Assembly: GCA_964394475.1 (NCBI GenBank)
Contig: CAYMXZ010000001.1
Coordinates: 4,480 to 68,479 of the forward strand
Direction of reading: 5' to 3'
Length of the DNA: 64,000 bases
Source of the DNA: an uncultured Caldithrix sp.
GTDB lineage: Bacteria; Calditrichota; Calditrichia; RBG-13-44-9
Positions 9,659 through 46,335 of the stretch are shown here, piece by piece. The notes under the pieces were generated by a model that was not told where the DNA came from, made no database searches, and saw only the letters and a program-made list of their open reading frames with translations. Every line of letters begins with the position of its first letter. The first letter of the stretch is position 1. A program made the translations under genes and the position numbers.

Positions 9659-9674
9659 TTTTAAACGGTAATTT

Positions 9675-10421
9675 TTAATCTTGACGATGGTTATTGACAG
9701 AAAAATCGTTTTTAAAGAATCCCAATTTTTTGGCCATTTTGATAATTCCTCTTCCCATGGCTGATACCTGAAAAGCCTGGGCTGGATTATTCCATCCTTT
9801 TTCTTTCTTAATTTTATACCATTGCCGAGATTCAGGTAAGGCCGATATATTTAAAAGGAGGTTTACTAAAATTATATACAAAATAACATAAATATCATGG
9901 GTTCGATACCATAACCACGGAATAAGGAAAAGCAATCCGATGGTGTACGTCAGATATAAATCTCTCAAAATAATAAGTCCAAAGATTAAACCACTGAAGG
10001 CACCGACGAAGACCCCTATCCAATCAATGGCAAAAATGCCTCCGTAGATGGCTGAAATGCCTCGCCCGCCGCGGAATTTGTGATATACTGGCCAGATGTG
10101 GCCCACCACTCCAGTCGTCGCAAAAACTAAATAATAATGAAATTCTGGAAACTGTGATTTTAAAAAGATAGTTGGAATGAATACTTTTAGCACATCACAG
10201 ACGTATGTTAAAAAACCAAACTTAGGCCCAACGTTGGTTGATACGGTAGTGGCGCTTACCAACTTCGTCACAATCTTCTTATCACTTCCTTGAATTCCGA
10301 ACGCAGTTTCTTCTGGCACTTTTTTATTTCTGCTAAACACATAGGTGATAATACGGGCAGAGGATATCGATCCGATTAAATATCCCCCAATAGCGCTGCT
10401 TAATAAAGGCAATATATTCAT
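9675..10421 (-). CDS. Divergent PlsY-family (acyl-phosphate:glycerol-3-phosphate acyltransferase-like) membrane protein
   Basis: GYLIGSISSARII lines up with PlsY's YL.GSI.SA.LV. GHIWPVYHKFRGGRGISA lines up with PlsY's GHIWPVFFGFKGGKGVAT. The canonical SGN.GATN motif is replaced (..TTVSTNVGPKFG..). There is a ~25-aa insertion after TM1. The protein is 248 aa. Confidence 0.6.
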   Translation of the reverse strand: MNILPLLSSAIGGYLIGSISSARIITYVFSRNKKVPEETAFGIQGSDKKIVTKLVSATTVSTNVGPKFGFLTYVCDVLKVFIPTIFLKSQFPEFHYYLVFATTGVVGHIWPVYHKFRGGRGISAIYGGIFAIDWIGVFVGAFSGLIFGLIILRDLYLTYTIGLLFLIPWLWYRTHDIYVILYIILVNLLLNISALPESRQWYKIKKEKGWNNPAQAFQVSAMGRGIIKMAKKLGFFKNDFSVNNHRQD

Positions 10422-10439
10422 GGTTTGACCTCCACTGAA

Positions 10440-12896
10440 TTAAAAATGTTTGAGATAAACCCGTCCGGTATATCCATCGATGGTTAATTTCTGTCCATTT
10501 TTAATAATTTTTGTGGCATTTCTTACGCTCAAAACCGCTGGTAATCCGTATTCGCGCGCAATAATAGCGCCATGAGATAGTTGACCGCCGGTTTCTGTAA
10601 TAATACCACCAATATTCGGAAATAAAGGTGTCCATCCGACATCGGTGAAAGGGACAATGAGAATATCTTGCCGGTTCAAACCAATTTTTACATCAGCAGG
10701 ATCATAGATGACTCTGGCATATCCCTGCACCCTCCCTGCACTACCGCTTATTCCCTGCAGCCACTCTTCTTTTTCCTGCGGAATGAATGAAATTGCATCC
10801 TCACAAATTATCTCAGGTGGGGTTATATTCGTATCGCTGGCAATTTCTTTTATTCTTATTTCAACAATTCTTTTTGGATCGAAATTTTTACTCTCATTAG
10901 TAATCAGTTGCTGTAACTCTGAGTAAGAAAGGTGAAAAATATCATCTCGATGGAGTAAATATTTTTTTTCTACCAATTGCTCTCCCATTGTAAGGTAAAT
11001 ACGGCGCATCTGATAGGAATCTTCAGACATAAAAAGACTTAATTTTTCGCGAAGTTTTATATAAGTAATGGTGGAATGCAACATACTATTAAAAATTATT
11101 CTCCTCCAGAAATTTAATTTTTGCTTTACATTTCGGATTGCTTTTTCTCGTTCTGTAGATCTAAAGCTCTCAGCATTGGTCACTGGTGATTCCAATTGTC
11201 GATGAATAGCCATCAATATAATCGACGGATTCTCGATCCATGGAGCTATAGAGAAATCGGTTCCGTTCATGCTCAGATGACCATAATGGTTTAAGAACTC
11301 GTTAAATTTTTTCAAAAAGGTCTGACCTTCCATACGTTCCTGCACAATAGCCGGGAAAGAAGCAGAAGGGTTACTCGGGATGGTTAACTCTAATTTTCTG
11401 GCCAGTGCAGCCAATTCATGAATTTTTTGGTTGGGCTCCAGAGATTTTAATCCGATCAACCCGCTGATAAGATCGTTTGGATTGACTTCAGGCACATATC
11501 GATTGACAAATTTTTTTAATATTCTGTTACGGATGGTCATATTCATCGCTCCGATCCACATATACCACTGGGTTTGGCGATGATATTTTCTTAAAATTTG
11601 TATATGGTGAAGTAGAGCCTCTAATCGAAAATTTTTCCATTCCTGCTTTCGGAAATTACTGAGCCGCTCTTCATGGAGGTGGATAAAATTTTGTAATTTC
11701 TTTTTAATCATGGAATATTCCACCAAAAATATGATGAAACGTAAGCTGGTTTTTACGACTCGCAGGGAAAATTTCGGGTAGCGGTTGATCGCCTTTTCAT
11801 CTCGCAGAATAGATTCAAAATAATTGATCGGTAAACCGATCTTCTGAAAAACGTCGGCCAGAAAAGTGATATTGACATACACTCTGGAGTGTATTTTTTT
11901 GATTAAATGGTGGAAGTTTATATCATTTGGTCCATAGATGTAGCTAAATATACGGCCGAAAACATTGGTGGTCATATCGAGCAGATTGGTGGACCACACC
12001 AGATTTTTAATTAATCCAGGGGTCATATCAGAAACCAGTCGATTCGAATAGACCGGCTTCACGGTGATCGTCGTAATGGGTCGTGATTGGAGAATATAGA
12101 AAGATGAACCATCCCAGGCCCATTCCACGTCCTGTGGAGTATGAAACAGCGCACTTATTTTTTTTACAATTTTTCCCAGTTCTTGTATTTGTGCAGGAGA
12201 GAGAACTGGTGAAGATGAATCCATGAGATGCTGTTCCACTAATTTCAACTCTGGATTAAGCAGATAACGATCGGGAGTTATATGGCCGGCCGCTAATTTT
12301 TCTCCCAGACCTGAAGTGGCCTCAATCAGGATGCACGGATGGCCAGTCATCGGATTGGCACTAAAAGCGACTCCGGCCGCTTTAGCTGAAATCATTTTTT
12401 GGATGATTATTGACATGGATAGCGGAGCGGAGCGTTTGAATTTCTCATTTTGTCCCAACTCTTTGCGATAGGTGATAAAACGTTTGTTCAAAATTCCAGT
12501 ATAACATTTTTGTATCGCAGCAATAAGCTGGTCATAATTTGTTATTTGCAGAAAAGAATCCAGTTGTCCAGCGTGGGAAGTATCAATTCTGTCTTCGCCG
12601 ACCACCGAGGAACGAACGGCTAAAGGCCAATCAATCGCATGCTGAATTTTCAGTAACTCTAATTTTATTTTCTCTGGCAGCTCGTCAAGAATAAAAAGCC
12701 GTCCTTCATCGGTTTTTCGAATCATTTTTCGAAAAACCCGGCTGGAAAGAATGATAGCAGGTGGAACATTAAATCCCATTTGATAAAGTTTGGCCAGGTT
12801 TGCACCTTTTCCCCCTGCTAATTTTTCCTGGCAGGCGCGTTTTTCAGATAATTGGATCAGATAACGACTCATATCGGCGAATTTATTTTGAAACAT
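10440..12896 (-). CDS. PEP-utilising-enzyme-family phosphotransferase (PpsA/pyruvate-phosphate-dikinase/rifampicin-phosphotransferase-like architecture; substrate unknown)
   Basis: The 818-aa protein has an N-terminal PPDK_N-type ATP-grasp region (..LAGGKGANLAKLYQMGFNVPP..). Its C-terminal swivelling phosphohistidine domain (..NIGGIITETGGQLSHGAIIAREYGLPAV..) has the catalytic His in a GG..SH.AI.ARE context. A long middle domain lies between them, as in rifampicin phosphotransferase. Confidence 0.8.
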   Translation of the reverse strand: MFQNKFADMSRYLIQLSEKRACQEKLAGGKGANLAKLYQMGFNVPPAIILSSRVFRKMIRKTDEGRLFILDELPEKIKLELLKIQHAIDWPLAVRSSVVGEDRIDTSHAGQLDSFLQITNYDQLIAAIQKCYTGILNKRFITYRKELGQNEKFKRSAPLSMSIIIQKMISAKAAGVAFSANPMTGHPCILIEATSGLGEKLAAGHITPDRYLLNPELKLVEQHLMDSSSPVLSPAQIQELGKIVKKISALFHTPQDVEWAWDGSSFYILQSRPITTITVKPVYSNRLVSDMTPGLIKNLVWSTNLLDMTTNVFGRIFSYIYGPNDINFHHLIKKIHSRVYVNITFLADVFQKIGLPINYFESILRDEKAINRYPKFSLRVVKTSLRFIIFLVEYSMIKKKLQNFIHLHEERLSNFRKQEWKNFRLEALLHHIQILRKYHRQTQWYMWIGAMNMTIRNRILKKFVNRYVPEVNPNDLISGLIGLKSLEPNQKIHELAALARKLELTIPSNPSASFPAIVQERMEGQTFLKKFNEFLNHYGHLSMNGTDFSIAPWIENPSIILMAIHRQLESPVTNAESFRSTEREKAIRNVKQKLNFWRRIIFNSMLHSTITYIKLREKLSLFMSEDSYQMRRIYLTMGEQLVEKKYLLHRDDIFHLSYSELQQLITNESKNFDPKRIVEIRIKEIASDTNITPPEIICEDAISFIPQEKEEWLQGISGSAGRVQGYARVIYDPADVKIGLNRQDILIVPFTDVGWTPLFPNIGGIITETGGQLSHGAIIAREYGLPAVLSVRNATKIIKNGQKLTIDGYTGRVYLKHF

Positions 12897-13283: not shown

Positions 13284-14021
13284 TTATTTTCGTAAAGAAG
13301 CCTTGGAAAAGATGTACTCTGGTATTTCGGCATTAAATTCAATTGATCGAATAATAAAAGTAGTTCCTTCGCCGCTTTTTAGCACATCTTTGAAATTGAT
13401 TTCGGTTGCTACCCAGCGTTTTCCGATGTATTCGACTTTTTTAATTTCAGTAGTTTTCAGTAATTTTCCGCTCTTGGCGAAGCGTTCCTCTTTTAAAATA
13501 ACAAATCTTTCCTGATCCACCCAGATTTTGCGAGTGGCATAGGCTACATCCGATAGCTTGGCAGTTAATTGAAGCTTCCAGCATGGGCGGTCAGTTACAA
13601 GTTCTTCGCCGATTATGGTGGCATTGTACAGATCGGTGAGTCGTGCGTCTTCCATTAAATCTTCATATGAAAGGTCTGATCCCATGACCGATTGTCGTAA
13701 CATGTGACCGGAGATCCGGATGGTTCGGTCAGTTGAAGGGGTATAAGTCCACAATTGATCGGCAATTTTTAGCATTTTGGTACCCCTCTCCCGCGGGGGC
13801 TCTAGATATTCAGTGAATGATTGTTCTCTCCCCTGAATCCAGGATTTTAATACAATGGTTCGATTCCCGCGCTGGCCACTGATATGCATCTCCGCCAGGG
13901 ACACTTTATTTTCCGAGCCGAGATTTTGGTCAATCCTTCTCAAAATCCACTCCCCACCGGGCTCTTGCGCAAATAAGTTGACTATAATAGACCAGATCAA
14001 AATAAAAATAAGATTTTTCAT
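13284..14021 (-). CDS. LolA-like periplasmic 'outer-membrane lipoprotein-sorting' protein
   Basis: The 245-aa protein has a cleavable signal peptide (MKNLIFILIWSIIVNLFAQE). Its size and beta-rich composition fit LolA-like half-barrel carriers. It overlaps the upstream permease by 4 nt. Confidence 0.55.
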   Translation of the reverse strand: MKNLIFILIWSIIVNLFAQEPGGEWILRRIDQNLGSENKVSLAEMHISGQRGNRTIVLKSWIQGREQSFTEYLEPPRERGTKMLKIADQLWTYTPSTDRTIRISGHMLRQSVMGSDLSYEDLMEDARLTDLYNATIIGEELVTDRPCWKLQLTAKLSDVAYATRKIWVDQERFVILKEERFAKSGKLLKTTEIKKVEYIGKRWVATEINFKDVLKSGEGTTFIIRSIEFNAEIPEYIFSKASLRK

Positions 14022-15292
14022 GCTTCGAATTCCTTACTTAACTGAGAAGTTTGTCTTTTAAAAATTCCTATACCCGCCATAGCAGTTCCCAGGAAAGTAG
14101 CTACTAATCCCGGAATGAATCCAATAATAAAACTCACTGGAGTAATCTGAGCACGCAATACATCGGAGATGACCATCGAGGCATTTTTCAACATTCCAGA
14201 AATATCCAGTCCCTTCACCTGCAGATAGTACGATATTGCTAAACCAAGTAAGGTACCTAAAATGGAACCCATCAAGCCAATGATTAAAGATTCAGCGATC
14301 ATTAATAGATAGAGATGTCTTTTATCTTCTCCGATGGCTAGGCGGATGCCAATTTCTCCATAGCGGCGTAAACTGGACATCAAACCGGCATTCCACAAAA
14401 CGATGGCCATAATGATAACAAATATGCCCACGAAAATAGAAGATAGATAGGTGGTATAGTCTAAAATTTGTGCTAATCCCGCTTGCTCGCGCAGGGTAAA
14501 CATTTCCGGTGAAAAGGAATCATCGCTCTGGGAAAATTTAGCATTAAATTTTTTCGCTATTTCTTTGGCCTGTTCATGGTGATAAAGGTGATCGTTAAAA
14601 AAACCAAGAATTTCCCCCGCCGCATCCGGCATATCAAGCGCCTGCTGGATATCATGAAGATCAGAGATCATGGCCCCGCGATCCATAGCCGATATTCCAA
14701 ATCGGATGGTTCCTACTATTTTGAAATTATAGGTGGCCATACTCCCATACATGCTGGAACTAATAAGAGTGGCAGTTTCATTTAGAGAAGCCTTCAGTTT
14801 TTGATACAATTCTTCACTCACCAGAATTTCCCCCGTTTGGGCGGGCAATCGTCCACGAACTAAAGCTCTGGAGAGTCGCAGGATCTGCGGTTCCAGGTTC
14901 TTGCCGGAAAACAAATCTACTCCCATACCGGCAATCGGGCTTTGACTTCTGGTCTCTCCCGAGTCGTCTGGAATATCCAGCAATCCCCCAAAACGAATGC
15001 GAGCGGTCCAATCCAGTTGGGGAAAATCGGCATAAAGCTGGTTCAACAGAGAATCCACGCCCATGTAAGCCAGGTCATTGGGAAGTTGATCGGCCTGTCT
15101 GGCATAGGCACGGGACATCACTTTTAGATGGCCAGTATTAAAGTTTGCATTCGCTTGTATGATATCATTTTCTGTACCTTTGATCCAACAGTAAAGCAAG
15201 ACGGTTAGACTAACTCCTGCCATTACGATAAGAAGGGGAAAAAGACTGCGCGAACGGTCACGGATTATACCTTTGATAATAAAAAAGATCAT
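14018..15292 (-). CDS. ABC transporter permease, FtsX/MacB/LolC-E type
   Basis: The 424-aa protein has an N-terminal TM helix, a ~200-aa periplasmic domain and C-terminal FtsX-type TM helices. It overlaps both the upstream and downstream genes by 4 nt. Confidence 0.8.
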   Translation of the reverse strand: MIFFIIKGIIRDRSRSLFPLLIVMAGVSLTVLLYCWIKGTENDIIQANANFNTGHLKVMSRAYARQADQLPNDLAYMGVDSLLNQLYADFPQLDWTARIRFGGLLDIPDDSGETRSQSPIAGMGVDLFSGKNLEPQILRLSRALVRGRLPAQTGEILVSEELYQKLKASLNETATLISSSMYGSMATYNFKIVGTIRFGISAMDRGAMISDLHDIQQALDMPDAAGEILGFFNDHLYHHEQAKEIAKKFNAKFSQSDDSFSPEMFTLREQAGLAQILDYTTYLSSIFVGIFVIIMAIVLWNAGLMSSLRRYGEIGIRLAIGEDKRHLYLLMIAESLIIGLMGSILGTLLGLAISYYLQVKGLDISGMLKNASMVISDVLRAQITPVSFIIGFIPGLVATFLGTAMAGIGIFKRQTSQLSKEFEA

Positions 15293-16461
15293 ATCATTCT
15301 TCCCCGCAATGCATCGGTTGGTTTAAGTTTGGAAATTTTTCGGGTTGGCAGGAAACTGACGATGGTAGTAACCATTAAAACCAGCAATGTCGTTCCAATG
15401 ATCAAACCTGCACTAAAAGCTGGAAATAATTTTTCGCCGATGGCAAAACCATAGGAATCTGCCTGGGTGGGAAGCTTCCAGCCAACTCTGACGAAGTAGG
15501 ATAATAGTGGGATGCCGTATGCCGCCGCCAAAATGACTGCCAGAACTCCATGCAGGCTACCCTCCAGCGTGAAAAGTCTGATTACCTCTCCGCGGGTCAT
15601 TCCCAGGGCCATTAAAGTCCCCATTTCTTTGCGCCGGCGAAATATGGAAAGCACCTGCGTATCAAAAATAGCCAACATCGCTAAAAATAAGAGCAGAAGA
15701 TAAATAATTGAAGAACCCACTGATTTTGATTTCACTAACTCATTTATGTCTTTGAGTAAAAAGTGGATATCTCTAAACTTCCAGCCCTCGAGGGATGGCC
15801 GATTGACCACTCCAGATCTCATGATCACCAGCGTGGCCTCATCCGTTACTCCAACCATCTCCTGTAGCAATTGAAGAGGAATCCACAGTTGTCCAATATC
15901 AATGGTCTGAACGGAGGTTTGCATTATTTGTACAATTTCCACTTCTTTGGCATCATAGGTGCCATTCACATCGCGCCATTGTAAAATCACCTGATCGCCC
16001 TGCTTTAGACCGGTGCTTTCTGCCATTCGCCGACCGATGAGAGCCGGGATCATATCGCTCGTGCCATGTAAAAAATGCGAAGGGATGGCAATTAATTTCT
16101 GCTCGGGGTCAATTCCATTAATAATAATTGGTTTGATTCTTCCTCCTGGATAAATAGTTCCAGGTATAATAAGCAAGGGTGTTGCCTCACCCATAGAAAT
16201 GAATTTTTTTAACGTTTCAGGGAGTGGTTGATGAGATTCATCCAGCGTCAAAGGATCATAAGGGTCGTAGTTTTCACTCCAGTATTGACCACCGCCATAA
16301 TAGGTGTCGATCATGGCCTGTGCCGTTTGCTTATTCATCCCTTCTAACAAACCCTGCAACGAAACAATGGCAAAGAAAGCAAAGGAGAGCACAATCACAT
16401 TTAACCAGGTACGTAAACCGGCCCCCAGTAAATTTTGCAGAGCTAATTTGATGATCACCAT
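15289..16461 (-). CDS. ABC transporter permease, FtsX/MacB/LolC-E type (second paralogue)
   Basis: The 390-aa protein has the same architecture as the neighbouring permease. The two different permeases plus one ATPase parallel LolC/LolE/LolD. Confidence 0.8.
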   Translation of the reverse strand: MVIIKLALQNLLGAGLRTWLNVIVLSFAFFAIVSLQGLLEGMNKQTAQAMIDTYYGGGQYWSENYDPYDPLTLDESHQPLPETLKKFISMGEATPLLIIPGTIYPGGRIKPIIINGIDPEQKLIAIPSHFLHGTSDMIPALIGRRMAESTGLKQGDQVILQWRDVNGTYDAKEVEIVQIMQTSVQTIDIGQLWIPLQLLQEMVGVTDEATLVIMRSGVVNRPSLEGWKFRDIHFLLKDINELVKSKSVGSSIIYLLLLFLAMLAIFDTQVLSIFRRRKEMGTLMALGMTRGEVIRLFTLEGSLHGVLAVILAAAYGIPLLSYFVRVGWKLPTQADSYGFAIGEKLFPAFSAGLIIGTTLLVLMVTTIVSFLPTRKISKLKPTDALRGRMI

Positions 16462-16496
16462 ATTTTATTCATCTTTAATTTTTTGAGTGAATGATT

Positions 16497-17192
16497 TTAT
16501 TCTTTCTTTTCGTCCTTTACAACTTTGCCATCAAATAAAGTAATTTTTCGTTTCAGATATTGGATCACCTTTTCATCATGGGTAGAAAAAATAAAAGTCG
16601 TGTGCAATTCCCTGTTTAAATTTTCCATGGTTTTCAGAATATGATGCGAATTTTCTGCATCCAGGTTGGCGGTGGGTTCATCGGCCAGAATGATTTCTGG
16701 ATTTTTCACGACGGCTCGGGCAATGGCTACCCGCTGACTTTCTCCTCCTGAAAGTTGATTGGGCCTGGAATTGGCGCGATCCTGCAAGTAGACCCACTCC
16801 AGAGCTTGCATTACTCTTTTTTTCCTCTCACTCGCTGACAAACGCTGCAATAATAATGGAAATTCAACATTTTCATATACCGTATAAACAGGCAATAAAT
16901 TGAAAGTCTGAAAAATAAATCCAATATGATAGTTCCGCAATTTGGCCGCGCTTTTGTGAGAGAGGGTTTCCACCCGATGCTTTAATACCATCACGCTTCC
17001 GCTGGTCGGGATATCCAGTGAACCAACGATATTTAATAATGTAGTTTTTCCCGATCCGCTTGGACCTACTATTCCGGCAAATTCGCCTCTATAAAAGGTT
17101 AAGTTTATGTGATCTAACGCCATCAGCTGGTTTTGACCCATTGGATATATTTTTACCACATCTCGCGTTTCGATAAGAATTTCGTTCTTCAT
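16497..17192 (-). CDS. ABC transporter ATP-binding protein (LolD/MacB-ATPase type)
   Basis: Walker A is GPSGSGKTTLLNIVG. The ABC signature is [14 protein letters not shown]. Walker B is IILADEPT. The protein is 231 aa. Confidence 0.9.
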   Translation of the reverse strand: MKNEILIETRDVVKIYPMGQNQLMALDHINLTFYRGEFAGIVGPSGSGKTTLLNIVGSLDIPTSGSVMVLKHRVETLSHKSAAKLRNYHIGFIFQTFNLLPVYTVYENVEFPLLLQRLSASERKKRVMQALEWVYLQDRANSRPNQLSGGESQRVAIARAVVKNPEIILADEPTANLDAENSHHILKTMENLNRELHTTFIFSTHDEKVIQYLKRKITLFDGKVVKDEKKE

Positions 17193-17229
17193 GCTCTCCT
17201 CAAAAAAGTAAAATATTCAACAGATGCGC

Positions 17230-18369
17230 CTAATGATTAAACACCACCATGATCTGAAAACCTTTACCAGCGAAATTATTGACAACTGAGGAACTGGAAT
17301 ATGTACGAGTAATTTCTGGATTCCAAAATGCCATCAAGAAAAAAGACCAGTGATCATAAGTTCTCCGCCAACTAAAAAAACGATAGTAATCTTCCTGCTT
17401 CCAGTGGTAATACAAAATTCCTTGCAACTGATCCATGATTCCAATGGGATAGTTGAAAGAAACCCCGCTAATAGAAAATCCTTCTCCAGCAGTAAACGCG
17501 TTATCAGCCTCTTCTGAGATGAAGTGTTCGGCTAAAAGGTTCAGACCGTTGCCAATCTTGAGAGTGTAATCTGCACCAATATTTCCCAGATGTCTCCAGG
17601 CATAGGGCCATAATTGATTGCTTTGCTGTGAAATGGTGAACTCCAGCCAAAGTCCAATTTCAAGATCCCATTTACCATCCACACCAAAACGATTCTCAAT
17701 CCCGGTCTGCTTGCCAAAGATGTCGATGGGAAGCAGTTTCTCGTTGAGTTGCAGTTTTCTGTGATGGAAGGATAAGGCCACTTCTCCCGCCGGCATTGGA
17801 TACTGGATTCTTCCCCCAAATTCTGGTTGGTCTTTCAGAGAAGGATGAATTTCCCAACCCCGCAGATCTTTGTTTCCGATTAATCCCCATAACCAGATAT
17901 TGGCATTGTTCAGGAAGTAATAACGCAAAAGCACGGCATACACTCCGCTGGTGATCTGTAACGGATCTCGCGGATCCAGTGAGTCGAACCACATCAGTGG
18001 CCGGAAAAGAGTAGCCGATCCAAAATTGATTTTCTGCAAACCAATCCGGAATTCGAATTGAGAGGTGGAGTATCGAGACCAAAATCGATAAAGTTTAATG
18101 TCTTGTGATGATTCACTTTTTTGAAAATTGTGGAAACGTCCGGAATGAAAGGCATTTAACGAAAATTCAAGATCCATATTATGTTCGCCGGGGAGAGCGT
18201 GGTGGAACATCAGGGTGGGAAGATAACGGATTCCATAAAAATGGTCTGGTGATGCGATATCATTCTGACCATACCAGCCGGAAAGCTCTCCCTGCCAACC
18301 GATTGGTTTGGCATAAAGCTTCAGCATAAGCAATAAAACTATCACAAGGAACTGCAGGAACTTTCTCAT
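17230..18369 (-). CDS. Secreted hypothetical protein, probable outer-membrane beta-barrel
   Basis: The 379-aa protein has a signal peptide (MRKFLQFLVIVLLLMLKLYA). It is rich in alternating aromatic/hydrophilic beta-strand-like segments (..YTLKIGNGLNL.., ..GFSISGVSFNYPIG..). It is the first gene of the ABC/LolA-like operon. Confidence 0.45.
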   Translation of the reverse strand: MRKFLQFLVIVLLLMLKLYAKPIGWQGELSGWYGQNDIASPDHFYGIRYLPTLMFHHALPGEHNMDLEFSLNAFHSGRFHNFQKSESSQDIKLYRFWSRYSTSQFEFRIGLQKINFGSATLFRPLMWFDSLDPRDPLQITSGVYAVLLRYYFLNNANIWLWGLIGNKDLRGWEIHPSLKDQPEFGGRIQYPMPAGEVALSFHHRKLQLNEKLLPIDIFGKQTGIENRFGVDGKWDLEIGLWLEFTISQQSNQLWPYAWRHLGNIGADYTLKIGNGLNLLAEHFISEEADNAFTAGEGFSISGVSFNYPIGIMDQLQGILYYHWKQEDYYRFFSWRRTYDHWSFFLMAFWNPEITRTYSSSSVVNNFAGKGFQIMVVFNH

Positions 18370-18817
18370 TGCTTCGAATGCTCCGTATAATCCAATAATA
18401 TTTTGTGATATATTTCAAGTCAAATCAAGCCCTAAATATCTCTGATGGTATACACTTTTTATTCAAAGTCAGAGATTCACAAAATTTCTGGTAAATAAAC
18501 CATTTCTCAATCATAGGCAACCATGGTTGTTAATTATGGGTATAAGTGGACGTTCCCACTTTCCTGCTATAATTCATTTGAGAATAATTTCATAGACCAT
18601 CCATCTTAGAAAAAACATCAGAATTCGGGGTGGAATCGCTTAACCCAACAAATCTTTGCCTAAGAATTCTCCAGGCAAAATTTTAAAAATAATTTATGTA
18701 ACCCACTGTTTGATTTTTCGTATTTGCAATTGTTTTGTGAATTCATTGAAGAATTGATCTGTTTTAAAAACAGTGAAGATAACGGGGAAGTCAATTTCAA
18801 ATGGAGAAAATTGTCTT
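18370..18817. promoter_or_regulatory. Divergent control region between two MacB/Lol-type ABC operons; contains perfect palindromes CAACCATGGTTG (18518-18529) and CTGTTTTAAAAACAG (18759-18773)
   Basis: This ~450-bp AT-rich non-coding region lies between the minus-strand operon (start 18369) and the plus-strand operon (likely start 18818). The two dyad-symmetric sites are seen directly in the sequence. Confidence 0.3.
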
Positions 18818-20074
18818 ATGTCGAAGAAACGAATTTTAATTCTGGCCATTGCTCTGGGAGTCATCATTGTTGTGCTGGTTGCTATTCTTTCTCGCAATGG
18901 GGGTGTGAAACCAATAAGTGTGCAGACCGCTAAAGTGTATCACCAAAAAATTGTGGAAACAGTGACGGCCACGGGTCGTATTCAACCGCAAACGCAGGTA
19001 AAAATAAGCGCCGATGTAGCGGCGAAAATTATTCAATTGGGAGTAAAGGAAGGGGATTGGGTGGAGAAAGGGCAATTTTTAGTTCAGCTGGATAGAGAGC
19101 GATTTCTGGCGGCGGTGCAGCGTGCCGAGGCAAATGTTCGTTCTGCCGAAGCCGATGCGAAACTGGCCAAAGAAAATTTATTAAAAGTGGAAAAAGATTA
19201 CCAGCGCAGCAAAGAACTATTCCAGCGCCAATTAGAATCGCAAGCGGTGCATGATCAGGCCTATGCGGCGTATCAGGTGGAAAAAGCCCGCTATCAATCT
19301 GCACTGGAGATGGTTGAACAGGCGCGCGCCACCTTGAAGCAAGCACAGGACGATCTCTCGAAAACCACCATTTACGCCCCAATGGCCGGCACCATCAGCA
19401 CATTGAATAAAGAAGTGGGGGAAATTGCTTTGGGATCTCAATTTCAGGAAGATGTGATTCTGATTGTGTCGGATCTGAATGGCATGGAAGCCCAGGTTGA
19501 CGTGGATGAAAATGATATCGTTAATGTCGCTATCGGAGATAGTGCAACCATTGAAGTTGATGCTCTGCCAGATAAAATTTTTAAAGGAACTGTTACTGAA
19601 ATCGCCAGCAGTGCCAAAATTTCCGGACAGGGTTCGGCTGACCAGAAAACGGATTTTGAAGTAAAAATTCATGTACTGGATGCGGGAGATTTGTTGCGGC
19701 CAGGAATGACCGCCAGCAGTGATATTATCACTGATATCCGTGACAGCGCTTTGGCCGTTCCCATTCAGTGTGTGGCAGTTCGCACACCTGATCAACTTAA
19801 ACCACTGCAGCCCGCTGTCAAAACCAACGAAGCAATGGCCGATGATTCCTCTCTTCAAAATTATGTCCCGGGCAAAGATGGTTTTGTGGAAGTGGTATTT
19901 GTGGTGAAAAATAAAATGGTCGAAGCCCGGCAGGTAAAAACTGGTATTCAAAGCGATACCCACATTGAAATTATAGAAGGTCTGAACCTGGATGATGAAA
20001 TCGTAATTGGCAATTATCGGGCGATCAGTCAAGATCTCCGCAATGGCTCCATCGTGACTTACGCTCAAAAATAA
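18818..20074 (+). CDS. HlyD/MacA-family periplasmic adaptor (membrane fusion protein)
   Basis: An N-terminal TM anchor (MSKKRILILAIALGVIIVVLVAIL) is followed by a biotinyl/lipoyl-like region and a long coiled-coil hairpin (..RAEANVRSAEADAKLAKENLLKVEKDYQRSKELFQ..). A beta-barrel and membrane-proximal domains follow. The track ORF starts at 18773; the Met at 18818 precedes the TM segment. Confidence 0.8.
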   Translation: MSKKRILILAIALGVIIVVLVAILSRNGGVKPISVQTAKVYHQKIVETVTATGRIQPQTQVKISADVAAKIIQLGVKEGDWVEKGQFLVQLDRERFLAAVQRAEANVRSAEADAKLAKENLLKVEKDYQRSKELFQRQLESQAVHDQAYAAYQVEKARYQSALEMVEQARATLKQAQDDLSKTTIYAPMAGTISTLNKEVGEIALGSQFQEDVILIVSDLNGMEAQVDVDENDIVNVAIGDSATIEVDALPDKIFKGTVTEIASSAKISGQGSADQKTDFEVKIHVLDAGDLLRPGMTASSDIITDIRDSALAVPIQCVAVRTPDQLKPLQPAVKTNEAMADDSSLQNYVPGKDGFVEVVFVVKNKMVEARQVKTGIQSDTHIEIIEGLNLDDEIVIGNYRAISQDLRNGSIVTYAQK

Positions 20075-20122
20075 AGATGACAATGATGAAATGAATGAAA
20101 CAGGAAGGAAAGGGGAAGAAGC

Positions 20123-20818
20123 ATGTCGCTTAGAATAGTAGATGTGATCAAAACTTATAAAATGGGTAATGAAATTATTGCCGCTCTGCAGGGAGTTTCT
20201 TTAGAGGTAGGGGAAAATGAGTATCTGGCTATTATGGGACCATCGGGTTCTGGTAAATCGACTATGATGAACATTTTAGGTTGTCTGGATAAACCCACCA
20301 GCGGGAATTACTTCTTAGGGGAACAGGATGTGAGCAAAATGAACGATGATCAGTTGGCCGATATTCGGAATCAAAAAATTGGTTTTGTATTTCAAACCTT
20401 TAATTTACTTCCTCGCGCCGATGTATTTCACAATGTCGAACTGCCTATGATATACAGTGGAATATCGGCTTCCAGACGCCGTCGGCTGGCAGAAGAAGCG
20501 ATTGAGAAAGTCGGATTGGCTGATCGGATGAAACATAAACCGAGCGAGTTATCCGGGGGACAGCGACAAAGGGTAGCCATTGCCCGAGCGCTGGTGAATA
20601 ACCCCTCTATTATTCTGGCCGATGAACCAACCGGCAATTTGGATTCGGCCACCGGTAAGGAAATTATGAGCATTTTCGACCAGCTTCATCGAGCGGGTAA
20701 TACCATCATTCTGGTCACTCATGAAAATGATATCGCCATGTATGCCCATCGGATTGTTCGTCTGAAGGATGGAATGATTGAAAGTGACTCGTCAAATCAT
20801 AAACATTATGCCGCCTGA
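20123..20818 (+). CDS. ABC transporter ATP-binding protein (MacB-type ATPase)
   Basis: Walker A is [15 protein letters not shown]. The ABC signature is [14 protein letters not shown]. Walker B is ILADEPT. The protein is 231 aa. Confidence 0.9.
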
Positions 20819-20839
20819 GAAAAAATCTGATGAACCGTT

Positions 20840-22075
20840 ATGAAATCATTTTATGAATTAGGAGAATCGTTTCGAATCGCTTATGGAGCCATACGAGCGA
20901 ATAAAGTGAGAGGAATTCTGACTACTTTGGGAATTATCATAGGGATCGTCGCCGTGGTGACGACAATGACTGCGGCGAATGGATTGGGAAATCGTTTTAA
21001 GGAAAGTCTTTCGGCTATTGGATCGGATGTCTTGTTTGTCTCGCGCACTCCCTGGGTTTTTACCGGTAACTTTTTTGAATTTCGCAACCGGAAAAATTTA
21101 GTCCTGAAAGACAGTGAAAAGTTGGAAAAACAACTTCCCACCGCCCGGGCCATTGATCCTCGCTCCTATACCAACCAGAATGTAAAATACCATTCCAAAC
21201 AACTAGAAAATATTGCCATTATTGGAGCTACGGATAATTATCTGTTCGTTTCCACCTCCGTTCCAGCCATTGGACGTTTTATACTTTCCAATGATGTTCA
21301 GTATAAAAAGAAAGTGTGTATCATCGGCAATGAAATCAAGGACCAGTTGTTTAAGGATCTCGACCCGATCAATAAGAAAATTAAGATTGGCAGGCATATT
21401 TTCCTGGTAGCAGGAGTCATGGAGAAACAGGGCAGTGCTAGCTTTTTCGGCGGCCCAAATTTCGACCGGCAAATCATTATTCCCATCACCACTTTAATCA
21501 AATGTTTCGGCGGCACAAACCGACCCTTCGATATTGTAGTAAAAGCACCCAGTGCCGAAGAAATGAGTGATTTTGAATATGCCCTGATTGGAGAAATGAG
21601 AAAGATTCGAAAACTGAAACCCAGTGAAAAAGAGGATTTCTCAATCAATAAATTAGACACCCTGATGACTGCCTATAATAATGTCATGGGTGTAGTCGTG
21701 CTGATCGGGTTGATCATTACCGGTATATCTCTTTTTGTCGGAGGAATCGGAGTGATGAATATCATGTTTGTATCCGTCACCGAGAGAACCCGTGAAATTG
21801 GAATTCGTAAGGCCATCGGTGCTACGAGAAGGACTATTCTTACTCAATTTCTTTTCGAATCATCCTCCATCTGTCTATTAGGTGGATTCATTGGTTTGCT
21901 CTTAGCCGTCGGAATTACCAAACTAATCAATGCCTTTCTTCTGCCTGCCAGTATATCCCTGCATATTGTGATTGTGGCATTACTGATTTCTGTCCTGGTA
22001 GGTATTTTATCCGGTGTTATTCCGGCTTATCGGGCATCGCGCCTGAATCCAATAGAAGCCTTGCGATATGAATAA
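20840..22075 (+). CDS. ABC transporter permease, MacB/FtsX type
   Basis: The 411-aa protein has an N-terminal TM helix, a periplasmic domain and a C-terminal FtsX domain (..GIGVMNIMFVSVTERTREIGIRKAIGA..). Confidence 0.8.
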   Translation: MKSFYELGESFRIAYGAIRANKVRGILTTLGIIIGIVAVVTTMTAANGLGNRFKESLSAIGSDVLFVSRTPWVFTGNFFEFRNRKNLVLKDSEKLEKQLPTARAIDPRSYTNQNVKYHSKQLENIAIIGATDNYLFVSTSVPAIGRFILSNDVQYKKKVCIIGNEIKDQLFKDLDPINKKIKIGRHIFLVAGVMEKQGSASFFGGPNFDRQIIIPITTLIKCFGGTNRPFDIVVKAPSAEEMSDFEYALIGEMRKIRKLKPSEKEDFSINKLDTLMTAYNNVMGVVVLIGLIITGISLFVGGIGVMNIMFVSVTERTREIGIRKAIGATRRTILTQFLFESSSICLLGGFIGLLLAVGITKLINAFLLPASISLHIVIVALLISVLVGILSGVIPAYRASRLNPIEALRYE

Positions 22076-22097
22076 GATCAAATGAGAGAAGGAAATT

Positions 22098-23345
22098 ATG
22101 GGATTCATTGAAGCTTTTAAGATGGCGCGCACTGCGATTACCACTCATAAGTTGCGATCGTTTCTGACCCTGATCGGTATCATTGCCGGGGTAGCCTCTA
22201 TCATTGCGGTTATGACCGGAATTTCGGTCATCCAATCGACTATCGAATCGGAATTGAGTGTGCTGGGAACAACGACCTTTCAGGTACAAAAGTGGGCGGC
22301 AGGTGGTCCGCTGAGTGAAGAAGAAGCCAGGAAAATTCAGCGTCGTCGCCCCCTGACCACTGCACATGCCGACGCCATTCGCAGCAAAGTGAAATCGGTG
22401 GATCTGGTTGGCTCTGAACTGTGGAGCTTTGGACATCTGGCAAGCTATAAAGATCTTAAAACCAATTCCAATCTCACACTTTGTGGCGGTACCCCAGAAT
22501 ATGCACCGAATAATACCCATTATATTCAACTCGGTCGTAACATTACCCAGGAGGACATAAAGGTAGGACGAAATGTGGCGGTAATCGGAGCAGCGGTTGC
22601 CGATCGGCTCTTTCCCTGGACCGATCCCATTCAAAAAATTATAAAAATAGATGGACGCAAATTCACAGTGGTGGGAGTGTTTGAATCAAAAAAATCGGCG
22701 CTGGGTGGAAATTATGATAATTATTTGTTAATACCAATCAACACCTTTAAGCGTTATTACGGAGAGCGTGATCCCCGAGGTTTTGACCGCTCAGTAAATA
22801 TCACGGTGAATGCCCGATCTCCGGAATTGGTGCAGGACGCCATTGCCGAAGTCCGTGCGGTGATGCGCTTTGAGCGGAATCTCAAACCGGATCAGGAAGA
22901 TGATTTTACGATTTTTACCAATGATAGCCAGATAAAAGTTTTTAATGAAACCACATCCGGAATAAAAACCGCTGCTTTTGTCATTGGGATTGTCGCTCTG
23001 ATTGTGGCTGGAATTGGGATTATGAATATTATGCTGGTATCGGTCACAGAACGTACCAAAGAAATAGGTATTCGGAAATCACTGGGAGCAAAGCGCAAAA
23101 ATATTTTAATCCAGTTCCTATTAGAAGCAATTATTCTATGTAACATCGGTGGTACAATTGGTGTCCTGGTTGGTTTTGGTTTGGGTAATCTTGTCTCAGT
23201 TTTTACCGGCTTTCAGGTAACTGTGCCATTGCCCTGGGCAGTTATCGGATTGCTTTTCTGTACAGCGGTTGGCTTAACTTTTGGTATGTGGCCAGCCATG
23301 GTGGCCTCTAAAATGGATCCGGTGGAAGCGCTACGATTTGAATAA
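22098..23345 (+). CDS. ABC transporter permease, MacB/FtsX type (second paralogue)
   Basis: The 415-aa protein has the same architecture (..GIGIMNIMLVSVTERTKEIGIRKSLGA..). Confidence 0.8.
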   Translation: MGFIEAFKMARTAITTHKLRSFLTLIGIIAGVASIIAVMTGISVIQSTIESELSVLGTTTFQVQKWAAGGPLSEEEARKIQRRRPLTTAHADAIRSKVKSVDLVGSELWSFGHLASYKDLKTNSNLTLCGGTPEYAPNNTHYIQLGRNITQEDIKVGRNVAVIGAAVADRLFPWTDPIQKIIKIDGRKFTVVGVFESKKSALGGNYDNYLLIPINTFKRYYGERDPRGFDRSVNITVNARSPELVQDAIAEVRAVMRFERNLKPDQEDDFTIFTNDSQIKVFNETTSGIKTAAFVIGIVALIVAGIGIMNIMLVSVTERTKEIGIRKSLGAKRKNILIQFLLEAIILCNIGGTIGVLVGFGLGNLVSVFTGFQVTVPLPWAVIGLLFCTAVGLTFGMWPAMVASKMDPVEALRFE

Positions 23346-34432: not shown

Positions 34433-34900
34433 TCAGGATAATTTGGGCAACAGATCGGCCATTTCAATTGCCGAAAGGGCGGCATCCCAACCCTTGTTGC
34501 CGGCTTTTGTACCCGCTCGTTCGATTGCTTGTTCCAGAGTATCAGCGGTAATAATTCCAAAAATTACTGGTTTGCCAGTCTCCATAGAAGAGTGGGCTAT
34601 TCCTTTTGCCACCTCAGCCGCGATATATTCGAAATGCGGAGTTGCTCCGCGGATCACCGCTCCCAGACAGATGACGGCATCATACTGGTTGCTTTTGGCT
34701 AACCGGTGGGCGACAGTTGGAATTTCAAAAGAGCCGGGCACCCAAAAAATCCGGATGTCTTTTTCATTTGCCTTATGCCTGTATAAACAATCCAGTGCCC
34801 CTTCCAATAATTTGGAGGAAATAAATTCATTAAAACGGCTAATGACAATAGCGAATTTACGCTTTTCGGCAGAAAGCATTCCTTGAATATGTTCTGGCAT
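34433..34900 (-). CDS. ribH: 6,7-dimethyl-8-ribityllumazine synthase
   Basis: ..[25 protein letters not shown]...[16 protein letters not shown].. is the canonical RibH core. The likely start is MPEH at 34900; the track ORF extends to 34918. Confidence 0.9.
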
Positions 34901-34989
34901 AATTTTTTCCCCTATCATATGTGAAAGTAATACAGCATTTAAAATTTATCAAGTACTGAATTTATCTCTATAACTAATTTTGTTCAATT

Positions 34990-36219
34990 TTAGGGATTTG
35001 GTTTTTTATCGAATAACAACAAGTGTCCTAGTTTTTCCTTTTTGGTTTTTAAGTACCCTTCATTAATTGGATTTGGAGAAATTTGAATCGGCACCCGTTC
35101 CAGAATTTCTAATCCGTAACCCTGCAGACCCACTACCTTTTTGGGATTGTTGGTCATTAACCTTATTTTTTTAATTCCCAGATCCAGCAGCATCTGAGCA
35201 CCCAAACCATAATCTCGCAAATCAGCTTTGAATCCCAACATTTCATTGGCTTCGACAGTATCTTTACCTTCATCCTGTAATTTGTAGGCTAAAATCTTGT
35301 TGGGGAGCCCGATCCCCCGTCCTTCCTGGCGCATGTAAAGTAAAGCTCCCCGTCCTTCTTTTTCAATTTGCTGGAGAGCATGGTGAAGTTGATCGCCGCA
35401 ATCACAGCGCAATGAACCGAAAGTATCACCGGTAAGACATTCCGAATGGACTCTTACCAGCACAGGTTTGCCGTCTGCCACATCGCCCTTTACCAGTGCC
35501 AGATGATGATCTTTAGGGTCAAGTGTGTTTTCATAAAGAATTAATTGAAATTGTCCATAGGCGGTGGGAAGCTTCACTTCGGTAATTCGTTTTACCAGTT
35601 TTTCGCGCCGCCTTCGATACTTAATGAGGTCCGCGATGGTAATCATCTTCAGTTGGTGCTGTTGGGCAATTTTCTGCAAAGTAGGAACACGGGCCATGTG
35701 GCCATCTTCATCAAGGATTTCACATAAGACCCCCGAAGGATTCATGCCGGCCATCTGGGTGAGATCAATCACCGCTTCAGTGTGACCTGCCCGCCGTAAA
35801 ACTCCACCTGGCTTGGCAATGAGCGGAAAAATATGTCCCGGCCGTGCCAGATCATGTGGTTTGGTTTTGGGATCAATAGCGGTCTTGATAGTTAAAGCTC
35901 TATCGTAAGCCGATACGCCGGTGGTGGTGCCATGACGGGCATCGATGGTTACCGTAAAGGCAGTTCCATGCAGAGCGGTATTATAATCCACCATGTTATC
36001 AAGCTCTAATTCTTGCGCGCGTTTTTCGGTGAGAGCCAGACAGACAATCCCCCGGCCGAACTTGGTCATAAAATTAATAGCCTCGGAAGTTACCTTCTCG
36101 GCAGCCATGATGAAATCTCCCTCGTTCTCCCGATCTTCATCATCGACGACAATTAAAATTTTACCCTGTCGGAGGTCTTCCAGAGCTTCTTCAATCGTTG
36201 AGAAAACAGGTTTTACCAT
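34990..36219 (-). CDS. ribBA: Bifunctional 3,4-dihydroxy-2-butanone-4-phosphate synthase / GTP cyclohydrolase II
   Basis: The N-terminal DHBP synthase region has ..[16 protein letters not shown].. The C-terminal GTP cyclohydrolase II region has ..[21 protein letters not shown].. The protein is 409 aa. Confidence 0.92.
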
Positions 36220-36238: not shown

Positions 36239-36874
36239 TTAATATCCCCAATCTTTTATTTTTTCATATGTTAGAGAATTCGGTGTACTGGACAGCAAAA
36301 GTTTTTCCAGATAGCGCGGAATGATATCAACCTCGATGTTGACTAAATCTCCTGCGTGCTTTTCCCGCAAGGTAGTATGCTGGGCCGTGTAAGGGATAAT
36401 GCTGATTCCAATTAAATTGCCCTCCATTCTGGCAATGGTAAGGCTTATTCCGTCTACGGCAATGCTACCTTCCGGGATACAATAGCGTACAAATTCCGCT
36501 GGTAGGTGTATCTCCAAATAATAATTTTCCGCTCGCTTATCCAGACGTTGAATCCTGGCGGTGCTGTTCACATGGCCTAAAACCAGATGTCCTCCCAGAG
36601 GAGTTTCTAAAGTAAGGGAGGTTTCTAAATTGACTTTGCGACCGATTTTATACTCTCCAAGGGTGGTCTTTTGTAATGTTTCTCCGACCGCCTGGACGGT
36701 AAATTCTCGCTCTTTCATCCGGATGACAGTCTGACAGGCACCATCAATAGCGATCGAATCATGAGCCTTTAATTTAGAAATAACCTTCGGAGCAGCAATG
36801 GTCAGCTCACGCCCGTCAGCCATTTTTTTAATGTGAATTACTTCTCCGATTTCTTCGATTATTCCGGTAAACAT
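36239..36874 (-). CDS. ribE: Riboflavin synthase (alpha subunit)
   Basis: [12 protein letters not shown].. is the canonical N-terminus. An internal lumazine-binding repeat is present. The start at 36874 sits 4 nt after the ribD stop; the track ORF extends to 36943. Confidence 0.9.
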
Positions 36875-36878
36875 GGGT

Positions 36879-38015
36879 TTAATCCATAATGGATTGATAG
36901 TCACGATAACCCTCAATAATTGCCTGCTGATCAAGGATTTCAATATTTACATTTTTGAGTTTAATGGCATCCCCCAGGGTCTCAATTCCTAAATCACCTA
37001 TACTCTGGATACCGGCCCCAATCATCATGGGGGCAATAAAAAAGGAGATTTTGTCAAATAACCGTTGTTTGATGAAGCTGGTGAAAATTTCTCCACCCCC
37101 CTCAACCAGGATGGAAGTAATTCTTTCGTTTGATAAGATTTCCAGGACTTTAGAGAGATTGGTAAATTTTTGCTGATCAGGCGCTAAATGAAATATTTTT
37201 ATCCCCTGTTTGACTAATTTTTCTACTTTAGGATCATTTTCTGACTTTAAGGTAAAAATGATAGTTTTATGCTTTTCCTGGTCAGTGACTAAGTGGGAAT
37301 CCAGAGGTATTTGCAGTTGATCATCAAGCACAATTCGGAACGGATTTCTCCCTTCAACCAATCGGACGGTGAGAGAGGGATTATCTTTAAGTACCGTATT
37401 TATGCCCACCAGAACCGCATCGTATTCACTGCGCCATTGATGCACTTTACGAAGAGCATTCTGATTGGTAATCCATTTCGAATTTCCATTGCTGGTGGCG
37501 ATACGTCCATCCAGTGATTGTGCGATTTTCAGATGGATGAAAGGTCGGTTATTCTTGATATAAAAGAAATATTTTTCGTTTAGTTTAATCGCTTCCTCTT
37601 TAAGAATCCCTACCTCTACCTCAATATGGTGCTGACGCAGAAGGTCAATTCCTCTGCCATTAACGTAGGGATTGGGATCTTTAGTGCAAATCACCACCCG
37701 TTTGATTTTTTCAGAAATAATGCGTTCAGAACATGGTGGAGTTTTTTTATTTGGTATGCCGTTCAAACATGGTTCTAAATTGCAGTAAAGTGTAGCACTG
37801 GCTACCGATTCAGAAGCATTATCGATGGCCATAATCTCAGCGTGTTTTTCTCCATACCGCTGATGATATCCCTCCCCAATAATTCGTTGATTTTTTACAA
37901 TAACCGTACCAACCAGTGGATTGGGTGAAGTATATCCTTTTCCCTTTTTAGCCAGTTCCAGTACCCTTTGCATGTAAAGCGCGTCATCCACGCTGTTCTC
38001 CTTGATTAGCTCCAT
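36879..38015 (-). CDS. ribD: Bifunctional diaminohydroxyphosphoribosylaminopyrimidine deaminase / 5-amino-6-(5-phosphoribosylamino)uracil reductase
   Basis: The deaminase zinc motifs are HAEIMAI and NLEPC....PPC. The C-terminus is a reductase domain. The protein is 378 aa. Confidence 0.9.
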   Translation of the reverse strand: MELIKENSVDDALYMQRVLELAKKGKGYTSPNPLVGTVIVKNQRIIGEGYHQRYGEKHAEIMAIDNASESVASATLYCNLEPCLNGIPNKKTPPCSERIISEKIKRVVICTKDPNPYVNGRGIDLLRQHHIEVEVGILKEEAIKLNEKYFFYIKNNRPFIHLKIAQSLDGRIATSNGNSKWITNQNALRKVHQWRSEYDAVLVGINTVLKDNPSLTVRLVEGRNPFRIVLDDQLQIPLDSHLVTDQEKHKTIIFTLKSENDPKVEKLVKQGIKIFHLAPDQQKFTNLSKVLEILSNERITSILVEGGGEIFTSFIKQRLFDKISFFIAPMMIGAGIQSIGDLGIETLGDAIKLKNVNIEILDQQAIIEGYRDYQSIMD

Positions 38016-46274: not shown

Positions 46275-46335
46275 ATTTATTTCGTGCGTATATTTTTTTT
46301 CAAAAATCGGACTGATAATAGAGTCCGATAAAAAA

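Follow-up and report, generated by a model that had tools for sequence, protein, structure and literature searches.

Transporters of the type VII ATP-binding cassette (ABC) superfamily, built on the MacB/FtsX mechanotransmission fold, are known to act in three modes: MacAB works with a periplasmic adaptor and TolC, the Lol pathway with a soluble carrier and an acceptor lipoprotein, and FtsEX and YbbAP with periplasmic enzymes. Other envelope systems join a DUF1302 outer-membrane protein and a DUF1329 partner to a transporter of the resistance-nodulation-division (RND) type. One of these is AmeABCD of Castellaniella defragrans, composed of the DUF1302 protein AmeA, the DUF1329 protein AmeB, AmeC and the HAE3 RND protein AmeD, which provides tolerance of monoterpenes and has a part in the efflux of Nile Red (PMC6394551). 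We describe here a five-gene unit on the minus strand of a 64,000-nucleotide stretch of DNA from an uncultured Caldithrix sp. (assembly GCA_964394475.1, contig CAYMXZ010000001.1, positions 4,480 to 68,479; this whole stretch is called the window and all positions refer to it). The unit belongs to the type VII ABC superfamily, and its genes encode an ATPase, two permeases, a LolA-like carrier and an outer-membrane barrel. We regard it, with a probability of roughly 55%, as an accessory, often repressor-controlled trans-envelope exporter of non-protein hydrophobic or amphiphilic cargo. By analogy, the best-supported description would be a new, ABC-driven variant of DUF1302/DUF1329 envelope systems such as AmeABCD. 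A published description of the five-gene unit was not found in the literature searched.

An earlier reading made from the letters alone, the sequence-only reading, had placed nine genes in this region, five on the minus and four on the plus strand. The map of open reading frames (ORFs) returns all of them with the same coordinates and strands, and Pfam, NCBIfam and PDB sequence searches backed the families assigned to them. The minus-strand unit opens with the secreted outer-membrane beta-barrel of 379 residues (17230..18369), followed by an ABC ATPase of the MacB/LolD/FtsE type (231 residues, 16497..17192), the two FtsX-fold permeases permA (390 residues, 15289..16461) and permB (424 residues, 14018..15292) and a periplasmic LolA-superfamily carrier of the PF17131/DUF1329 class (245 residues, 13284..14021). 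Overlaps of 4 nt had been claimed for the last three junctions; this is right for permA/permB and permB/carrier, both with ATGA, but the junction sequence between ATPase and permA is a 35-nt spacer. The spacer between barrel and ATPase is 37 nt long and contains a GAGGAG Shine-Dalgarno sequence. At the ends of the operon, scans for promoters, terminators and inverted repeats gave nothing above chance.

The ATPase (PF00005, 121 bits) has intact motifs, with GPSGSGKT as Walker A, LSGGE as signature and IILADE as Walker B. Its top NCBIfam model is LolD (TIGR02211), which at 239.1 bits misses the cut-off of 307.75, and the models for FtsE, DarD and the MacB nucleotide-binding domain (NBD) score close behind. 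Both permeases pass the gathering cut-off of 25.5 bits for PF02687 (FtsX), with 61.2 bits for permA and 60.2 bits for permB, while MacB_PCD is sub-threshold in permA (21 bits vs 27) and without a Pfam match in permB. Hydropathy analysis gives both the type VII topology, in which a first transmembrane (TM) segment is followed by a large periplasmic domain and three further segments. In permA these segments lie at residues 20-38, 248-266, ~306-324 and 353-371 with a periplasmic domain of ~210 residues, and in permB at 17-35, 287-305, 335-353 and 383-401 with one of ~245 residues. The two permeases are very divergent from each other, sharing 25% identity across just 77 residues. Their nearest solved relatives in the PDB sequence search are distant, all at E values of about 1e-5 to 1e-7: LolF (1.9e-6), YtrF and LolC (5.9e-6) for permA, and YtrF (1.4e-7), LolF and MacB for permB. 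The lolCE equivalog TIGR02212 (cut-off 362 bits) is failed by both, with 49.7 bits for permA and 29.1 bits for permB.

One ATPase gene with two non-identical permeases of four TM segments is thus present, and the LolCDE-like architecture noted from the sequence alone holds. The Lol systems (LolCDE-LolA-LolB of E. coli, LolDF of Acinetobacter) and the unit share a single NBD gene, FtsX-fold permeases of four TM segments with large periplasmic domains and a soluble LolA-superfamily carrier in the periplasm, and neither contains a membrane-fusion adaptor. The presence of two different permeases corresponds to LolC and LolE. This Lol-like composition without an adaptor makes a shuttle mechanism plausible for the unit. 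The same facts could be taken for a self-contained Lol-like lipoprotein pathway, in which the ABC complex would extract lipoproteins, the LolA-like protein would ferry them and the barrel would be the outer-membrane acceptor in place of LolB. One ATPase, two non-identical permeases and a LolA-superfamily carrier mirror LolCDE-LolA, LolD is the best-scoring NCBIfam model of the ATPase, LolF and LolC are among the nearest solved relatives of permA, and an analogous proposal has been made in silico for the BBJ23-29 cluster of Borrelia (PMC13078400). That cluster is the closest published architecture, with the difference that it has an Omp85 barrel and a single permease. A homology to it was considered and dropped, as tblastn of the window carrier against plasmids gave no Borrelia match.

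What separates the unit from the Lol pathway is found in its carrier, its outer-membrane partner and its scores. The carrier is a soluble periplasmic protein with a signal peptide for signal peptidase I (..LFAQ/EP) and no lipobox. It passes the gathering score of PF17131 (LolA_like, now TP_0789-like; 203 bits vs a cut-off of 30) and has the half-barrel fold of the LolA superfamily, in line with the LolA-like periplasmic carrier that had been read into the last gene of the operon. It fails, however, as a member of the LolA family itself: it does not belong to PF03548, its fold is not closest to LolA, and it lies in a structural subgroup other than that of LolA. Its nearest solved relative is LolA3 of Porphyromonas gingivalis (PGN0947, PDB 9TP6), which does not bind LolB, and lolA3 mutants of Flavobacterium johnsoniae are without defect in gliding, type IX secretion (T9SS) and surface lipoproteins. 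The outer-membrane partner in the unit is an 18-stranded integral barrel with a signal peptidase I signal and no lipobox, while the Lol pathway uses a LolB-type lipoprotein. The unit also differs in that all its parts are in one operon, often linked to a TetR gene, and in that it fails all Lol equivalog cut-offs; because these defining cut-offs are failed, we do not count it as a member of the Lol pathway. The notion of the barrel as a substitute for LolB had leaned on an absence of LolB outside Proteobacteria. This is outdated, since LolB homologues are described in Bacteroidota (PMC11885536, PMC13103446), and together with the lack of LolB binding by LolA3 it speaks against the substitution. 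Lol genes are not found among the other ORFs of the window of at least 150 residues, which are mostly housekeeping or regulatory genes with a few that have no Pfam match. On the points at which the sequence-only reading could have failed, a carrier without the half-barrel fold, a missing barrel or an unconserved gene order, the analysis found the opposite in each case. Nevertheless, we consider it improbable that the unit sorts lipoproteins.

Two further comparisons concern the carrier and the engine. The Pfam renaming to TP_0789-like suggested a parallel in Treponema pallidum, which we rejected: TP0789 adjoins the RND protein TP0790, and TP0784-0786 are modelled as Lpt proteins, so there is no ABC parallel in that organism. 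For YbbAP-TesA of E. coli, it has been proposed that a type VII ABC transporter draws hydrophobic compounds out of the inner membrane and passes them on to a partner in the periplasm (PMC12646458). That partner is a lipid hydrolase, the permease is a single fused protein and no outer-membrane barrel takes part, whereas the window unit has a carrier, two permeases and a barrel.

The barrel probably links the unit to the DUF1302 proteins. The sequence-only reading took the product of 17230..18369 for a beta-barrel and asked for its strands to be counted, and the structural model indeed has 18 (predicted local distance difference test, pLDDT, 86; predicted template modelling score, pTM, 0.78). 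A signal peptide of the signal peptidase I type is present and a lipobox is not. Structure comparison places the model nearest to the solved folds of Occ, AlgE and Wzi, and also of Occ/OprD, ChiP and maltoporin, but by sequence the barrel is a member neither of the OprD/Occ porins nor of AlgE, and Pfam, NCBIfam and PDB sequence searches for a family assignment were all empty. Loop L3 is strongly conserved over 30 residues (~113-142; GLQKINFGSA..RPLMWFD..DPRDPLQ). The family is large, with 4,178 clusters at 90% identity and 951 clusters at 50% identity, 532 of the latter with E <= 1e-30, and all are annotated as hypothetical. Neither PF06980 (DUF1302) nor any other Pfam model was matched by 46 family members, even at E<=10, and the family is not in Pfam. 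Among the longer homologues, two have long N-terminal extensions, one with a peptidoglycan-binding SPOR domain and one of low complexity rich in Pro, Ser and Thr (P0418, 636 residues; P0405, 644 residues). A fusion of carrier and barrel was looked for among the long homologues, and none was found; there is one PlsY-like read-through or fusion and one SPOR protein, and the rest are low-complexity extensions.

Profile comparison offers a possible bridge in two steps. An alignment (A2) of a Burkholderia-type family of 380 residues, several members of which carry PF06980, matches a genuine DUF1302 protein with 94% probability (E 1.5e-7, 312 columns). The window barrel family matches A2 with 61% when a shallow profile is used, and with 86.5% (E 4.6e-6, 248 columns) when the more diverse profile A4 (effective number of sequences, Neff, 5.0) is used. 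The direct comparison of the window family profile with a single DUF1302 sequence rose from 1.4% to 31% (E 5e-4) with A4. The core common to both is a motif of strand 5 and L3, RxGxQxIxxG...PxD..NP. DUF1302 has been described as an 18-stranded barrel that in structure most closely resembles AlgE and an Occ channel of Acinetobacter, and AF-Multimer predicts a complex of DUF1302 with DUF1329 (interface pTM, ipTM, 0.84; PMC13499233). Another report likewise finds Occ/AlgE as its nearest folds, giving 18 strands in one passage and 16 in another (10.64898/2026.03.07.710327). Because of the transitive profile matches, the common motif and the matching published fold, we take the window barrel to be probably a remote branch of the DUF1302 superfamily.

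The probable kinship extends from the barrel to its partner. The DUF1302-DUF1329-(BNR)-HAE3/MMPL RND systems (AmeABCD; Sama_1588-1591; PP_0765/0766) and the window unit both have an 18-stranded outer-membrane barrel of Occ/AlgE-like fold that contains the strand-5/L3 motif, and both have a secreted LolA-superfamily partner of the PF17131/DUF1329 fold whose gene adjoins the barrel gene. In both, the pair goes with a transporter of the inner membrane and with a locally encoded regulator, the latter absent from the copy in the window. As with DUF1302 partners, the carrier gene shares an operon with the barrel gene, both in the window and at 56 of 61 related loci, and in one locus the two form a unit of their own (L036, 7953-9938), with a fused double FtsX permease of 809 residues lying 2.8 kb off on the opposite strand. 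The two differ in several respects. The window unit has a type VII ABC engine that is driven by ATP and has two permeases, while AmeABCD-type systems use a proton-driven RND/MMPL protein; none of the five genes encodes an RND or a BNR/COG4447 protein, so that the unit does not qualify as an AmeABCD-type tetrapartite system. The barrel has 379 residues and fails PF06980, compared to 435-605 residues in DUF1302 systems, and the regulator is TetR in window-type units, but LuxR or AraC in RND systems. The taxa differ as well, with the ABC-linked unit found in the Fibrobacterota-Chlorobiota-Bacteroidota (FCB) group, Acidobacteriota and allies, and the RND systems in Proteobacteria.

Around PF17131 genes elsewhere, a like three-part plan recurs. 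In Prevotella nigrescens (L085, NZ_CP082843.1 363937-378698) a TetR gene and two ABC genes are followed by MMPL, LolA-like and DUF1302 genes, and the LolA-like protein matches both PF17131 and DUF1329. Plasmid p1 of Burkholderia thailandensis (L086, NZ_CP068711.1 276928-291614) encodes a PF17131 carrier, an ATPase, a fused double MacB_PCD/FtsX permease of 832 residues and a DUF1302-like barrel of 380 residues. At the same plasmid locus, genes for an AarF/UbiB-family kinase and a VTT/DedA-domain protein come next, and an ICMT-family gene lies 4.7 kb upstream, past copper-ATPase genes. In P. gingivalis, an operon of TetR, MMPL, 'lipoprotein-sorting' and hypothetical genes is among those most induced by hemin limitation (PMC10470040), and judging from the annotation its carrier appears to be LolA3 (PGN0947). 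That operon has an MMPL engine and responds to hemin limitation, while the window unit has an ABC complex. We take the barrel-carrier pair to be a candidate portable module that would attach to either ABC or RND/MMPL engines.

The functions ascribed to the RND-linked relatives bear on the direction of transport. In several Proteobacteria, cofitness ties together the DUF1302, DUF1329, BNR and RND genes, for which 'export of a cell wall component' was proposed (10.1101/072470). Mutants of the DUF1302 and DUF1329 genes of P. putida, on the other hand, lose fitness on fatty esters (10.1101/2020.07.04.188060), and DUF1329 genes are located in aromatic and steroid catabolic clusters (10.1101/072470), which would suit the uptake of a hydrophobic nutrient: the barrel would admit it, the LolA-like protein carry it inward and the ABC complex deliver it to the inner membrane. 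Uptake channels, namely Occ/OprD, ChiP and maltoporin, likewise supply the folds closest to that of the barrel. However, the only direct transport data among the related systems are outward (AmeABCD, PMC6394551), and catabolic genes are not conserved neighbours at the loci studied here. The engine bears on this too: we know of no ABC importer with the FtsX fold (cf. MacB, LolCDE, FtsEX, YbbAP), and uptake is for this reason unlikely.

A role as accessory exporter is favoured by the way in which the unit is conserved and linked to TetR. Gene order was counted in 61 related loci with at least 5.3 kb downstream, TetR genes and divergent neighbours in 80 loci, and neighbouring enzymes and proximity of MacAB genes in 83 loci. 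The order barrel, ATPase, permA, permB, carrier, whose conservation the sequence-only reading proposed to check, is colinear in the 56 loci mentioned above, and 51 of these keep the ATGA overlap of permA and permB. Strict colinearity and coupled translation thus extend over many phyla. Compared with the window, the ATPases of the 56 loci reach a median identity of 71%, the carriers 59%, the two permeases 57% and 56%, and the barrels 45%, and the arrangement goes far beyond chance. A scan of one genome per GTDB species gave at least 577 matches in about ten phyla; by record title, the matches listed include Calditrichia, Aminicenantes/Acidobacteriota, Gemmatimonadota, KSB1, Zixibacteria, Ignavibacteriota and Bacteroidota as well as Desulfobacterota, Deferribacteres, Chrysiogenales and Omnitrophica. 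Among homologues with a name, those from metagenome-assembled genomes (MAGs) of Calditrichota are the nearest. Variants are found in two MAGs, one of them labelled Aminicenantes, where the barrel gene and a four-gene operon with TetR at its head are convergent (L006, L035), and in an Ignavibacterium and a Melioribacteraceae MAG, where permA is duplicated (L039, L056). In 34 of the 80 loci (about 40%) the unit is immediately preceded, in the same orientation, by an orthologous TetR-family gene, and the cultured Persicobacter psychrovividus carries the unit together with TetR on its megaplasmid pPP1. Because of this TetR linkage and the kinship of barrel and carrier with DUF1302/DUF1329 proteins, we favour an accessory exporter over a housekeeping sorter.

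In such an exporter, the ATPase dimer would power a heterodimer of permA and permB, and this complex would extract the cargo, either out of the inner membrane's outer leaflet or out of the periplasm. The soluble carrier would receive the cargo, shuttle it across the periplasm and dock on the barrel, which would release it outside or insert it into the outer membrane. In loci with a TetR gene, its product would derepress the unit upon build-up of the cargo or of a related compound. Several points weigh against this picture. The link between barrel and DUF1302 is remote, with no direct Pfam match and a direct profile-to-sequence comparison of just 31%. The direct functional data come from RND-linked relatives only, and even there the function of DUF1302/DUF1329 is ambiguous, as envelope-component export, efflux and ester metabolism have all been proposed (PMC6394551; 10.1101/072470; 10.1101/2020.07.04.188060). 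The barrel has many conserved charged residues, which are more readily reconciled with a polar or amphiphilic cargo than with one that is purely hydrophobic. Finally, the unit of the window itself is without TetR, and inducibility is therefore extrapolated for this copy.

A more specific alternative is a dedicated lipid transporter that would serve to build or remodel the outer membrane, whose cargo would be a membrane lipid made by neighbouring enzymes and whose barrel would insert it as LptD does with lipopolysaccharide (LPS). Conserved charges and the L3 loop would suit a polar head group, and the cell wall component export proposed for DUF1302/DUF1329 by Price et al. (10.1101/072470) is in line with this. 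In the window, genes for a phosphoenolpyruvate (PEP)-utilising enzyme (818 residues), a PlsY-like acyltransferase (248 residues) and a membrane methyltransferase resembling isoprenylcysteine carboxyl methyltransferase or phosphatidylethanolamine methyltransferase (ICMT/PEMT-like, 223 residues) follow in that order on the minus strand (8987-12896). The PEP-utilising enzyme has a PPDK_N and a mobile His domain and lies under every NCBIfam cut-off, and the PlsY-like protein has a C-terminal extension. The first two genes are directly downstream of the unit also in L004, L012, L013 and L023 and nearby in L050; L045 is listed among the loci for the enzyme trio as well. Within the unit of L013, an ICMT-like gene is inserted between barrel and ATPase. 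A further case is P0390 (622 residues; JGI sample 3300075153, on a 5.4-kb contig), whose residues 1-234 match the PlsY-like protein of the window (39% identity, E 7e-50) and are followed straight by a barrel signal peptide and barrel, so that the same PlsY-like subfamily is joined directly to the barrel. It is a read-through or a true fusion, and either way a PlsY-like gene is immediately upstream of a barrel in a GC-rich lineage. The gene preceding P0390 has weak ferrochelatase/CbiX matches.

The trio may be a lipid-making set linked to the exporter in the lineage of the window. As a general explanation a dedicated lipid transporter is nevertheless doubtful, though less so than lipoprotein sorting or uptake. 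Such enzymes are neighbours in just ~6 of 83 loci, plus the one fusion, and most of these belong to lineages near that of the window; a gap of 387 nt separates them from the unit in the window, no product can be predicted for the trio, and control by TetR suits efflux at least equally well. A stronger form of the idea would make the unit an unrecognised type VII ABC class, with a route through a DUF1329-class carrier and a DUF1302-like barrel acting as an LptD-like insertase. We hold this form to be rather improbable, but if true it would give a function to the large 'dark' families DUF1302 and DUF1329 and an outer-membrane lipid-delivery route to bacteria of the FCB group, Acidobacteriota and allied phyla.

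Divergent from the five-gene unit, the plus strand encodes a second transporter, and the MacAB-like operon of adaptor, ATPase and two FtsX permeases that had been recognised there is borne out. The HlyD/MacA-type periplasmic adaptor (18773..20074; HlyD_D23, HlyD_3) has a single N-terminal TM segment and matches the RND membrane-fusion model TIGR01730 with 166.5 bits (cut-off 94.9), compared to 125 bits against the 342 needed for MacA. The ATPase (20123..20818; PF00005, 117 bits) has the MacB NBD region as its best NCBIfam match (267 bits) and is 45% identical to the minus-strand ATPase. Permease 1 (20840..22075; MacB_PCD 118 bits, FtsX 81 bits), which has no fused NBD, matches the MacB structure 5LIL with E = 1.5e-56, and shares 33% identity with permease 2 (22098..23345; MacB_PCD 130 bits, FtsX 75 bits). 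Adaptor, MacB-type NBD and MacB_PCD and FtsX permeases are common to this operon and MacAB-TolC. The difference is that two paralogous permeases are present here and the NBD is a separate polypeptide, while in E. coli MacB it is fused to the permease. No member of the OEP/TolC family was matched among window ORFs of at least 150 residues, and one may be encoded elsewhere in the genome.

A control region of about 450 bp had been described between the two operons. This agrees with 448 bp (18370..18817) between the barrel gene and the adaptor start at ATG 18818 (MSKKRILILAI...), which is likelier than GTG 18773, from which 403 bp would result. The region contains no TetR gene and no Rfam element, and matches to promoters and terminators are no more than chance; on the minus strand, a single sigma-70-like site occurs at 18423..18395, and palindromes are weak only. 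That the two operons share regulation or hand cargo to each other, as had been suggested, finds no echo elsewhere: a divergent MacAB-like neighbour is seen at 0 of 80 related loci, and no more than 2-3 of 83 loci have MacAB-like genes close to the unit, never divergent. An ordinary split MacAB-type efflux pump is encoded on the plus strand, and its adjacency to the unit is happenstance.

The remainder of the window holds other features. An ordinary FMN riboswitch (38071-38255, minus strand; 97.7 bits vs a cut-off of 66.2) precedes a riboflavin operon on the same strand, with ribD (38015..36879), riboflavin synthase (36943..36239), ribBA (36219..34990) and lumazine synthase (34918..34433). A secreted M6-family peptidase of 1,024 residues (4220-7294, plus strand) contains cadherin-like/Big_9 domains and ends in a sorting domain of the T9SS (Por_Secre_tail), as would suit a window that stems from the FCB group. 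Two diguanylate cyclases are encoded on the plus strand, of the HDOD-GGDEF (41890-43398) and REC-GAF-GGDEF (46189-47964) type, the latter followed by a GT4 glycosyltransferase and a glycerophosphodiester phosphodiesterase. Four ORFs of 180-417 residues have no Pfam family (26427-27491, plus; 27465-28718, 8180-8722 and 3475-4053, minus), and the first two, which lie on opposite strands, share 27 nt at their 3' ends.

The annotation 'outer membrane lipoprotein-sorting protein' makes a Lol function for such carriers tempting, and is probably wrong. Pfam has no entry for the barrel family and its roughly 950 clusters at 50% identity. Since the cultured P. psychrovividus carries a TetR-linked unit, identification of the cargo is experimentally within reach. 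The unit would add a fourth mode to the type VII ABC superfamily, in which a soluble carrier is combined with a dedicated integral outer-membrane barrel, strictly conserved in hundreds of species of about ten phyla. DUF1302 and DUF1329/PF17131, two large families without established function, would thereby be connected to an ATP-driven engine.

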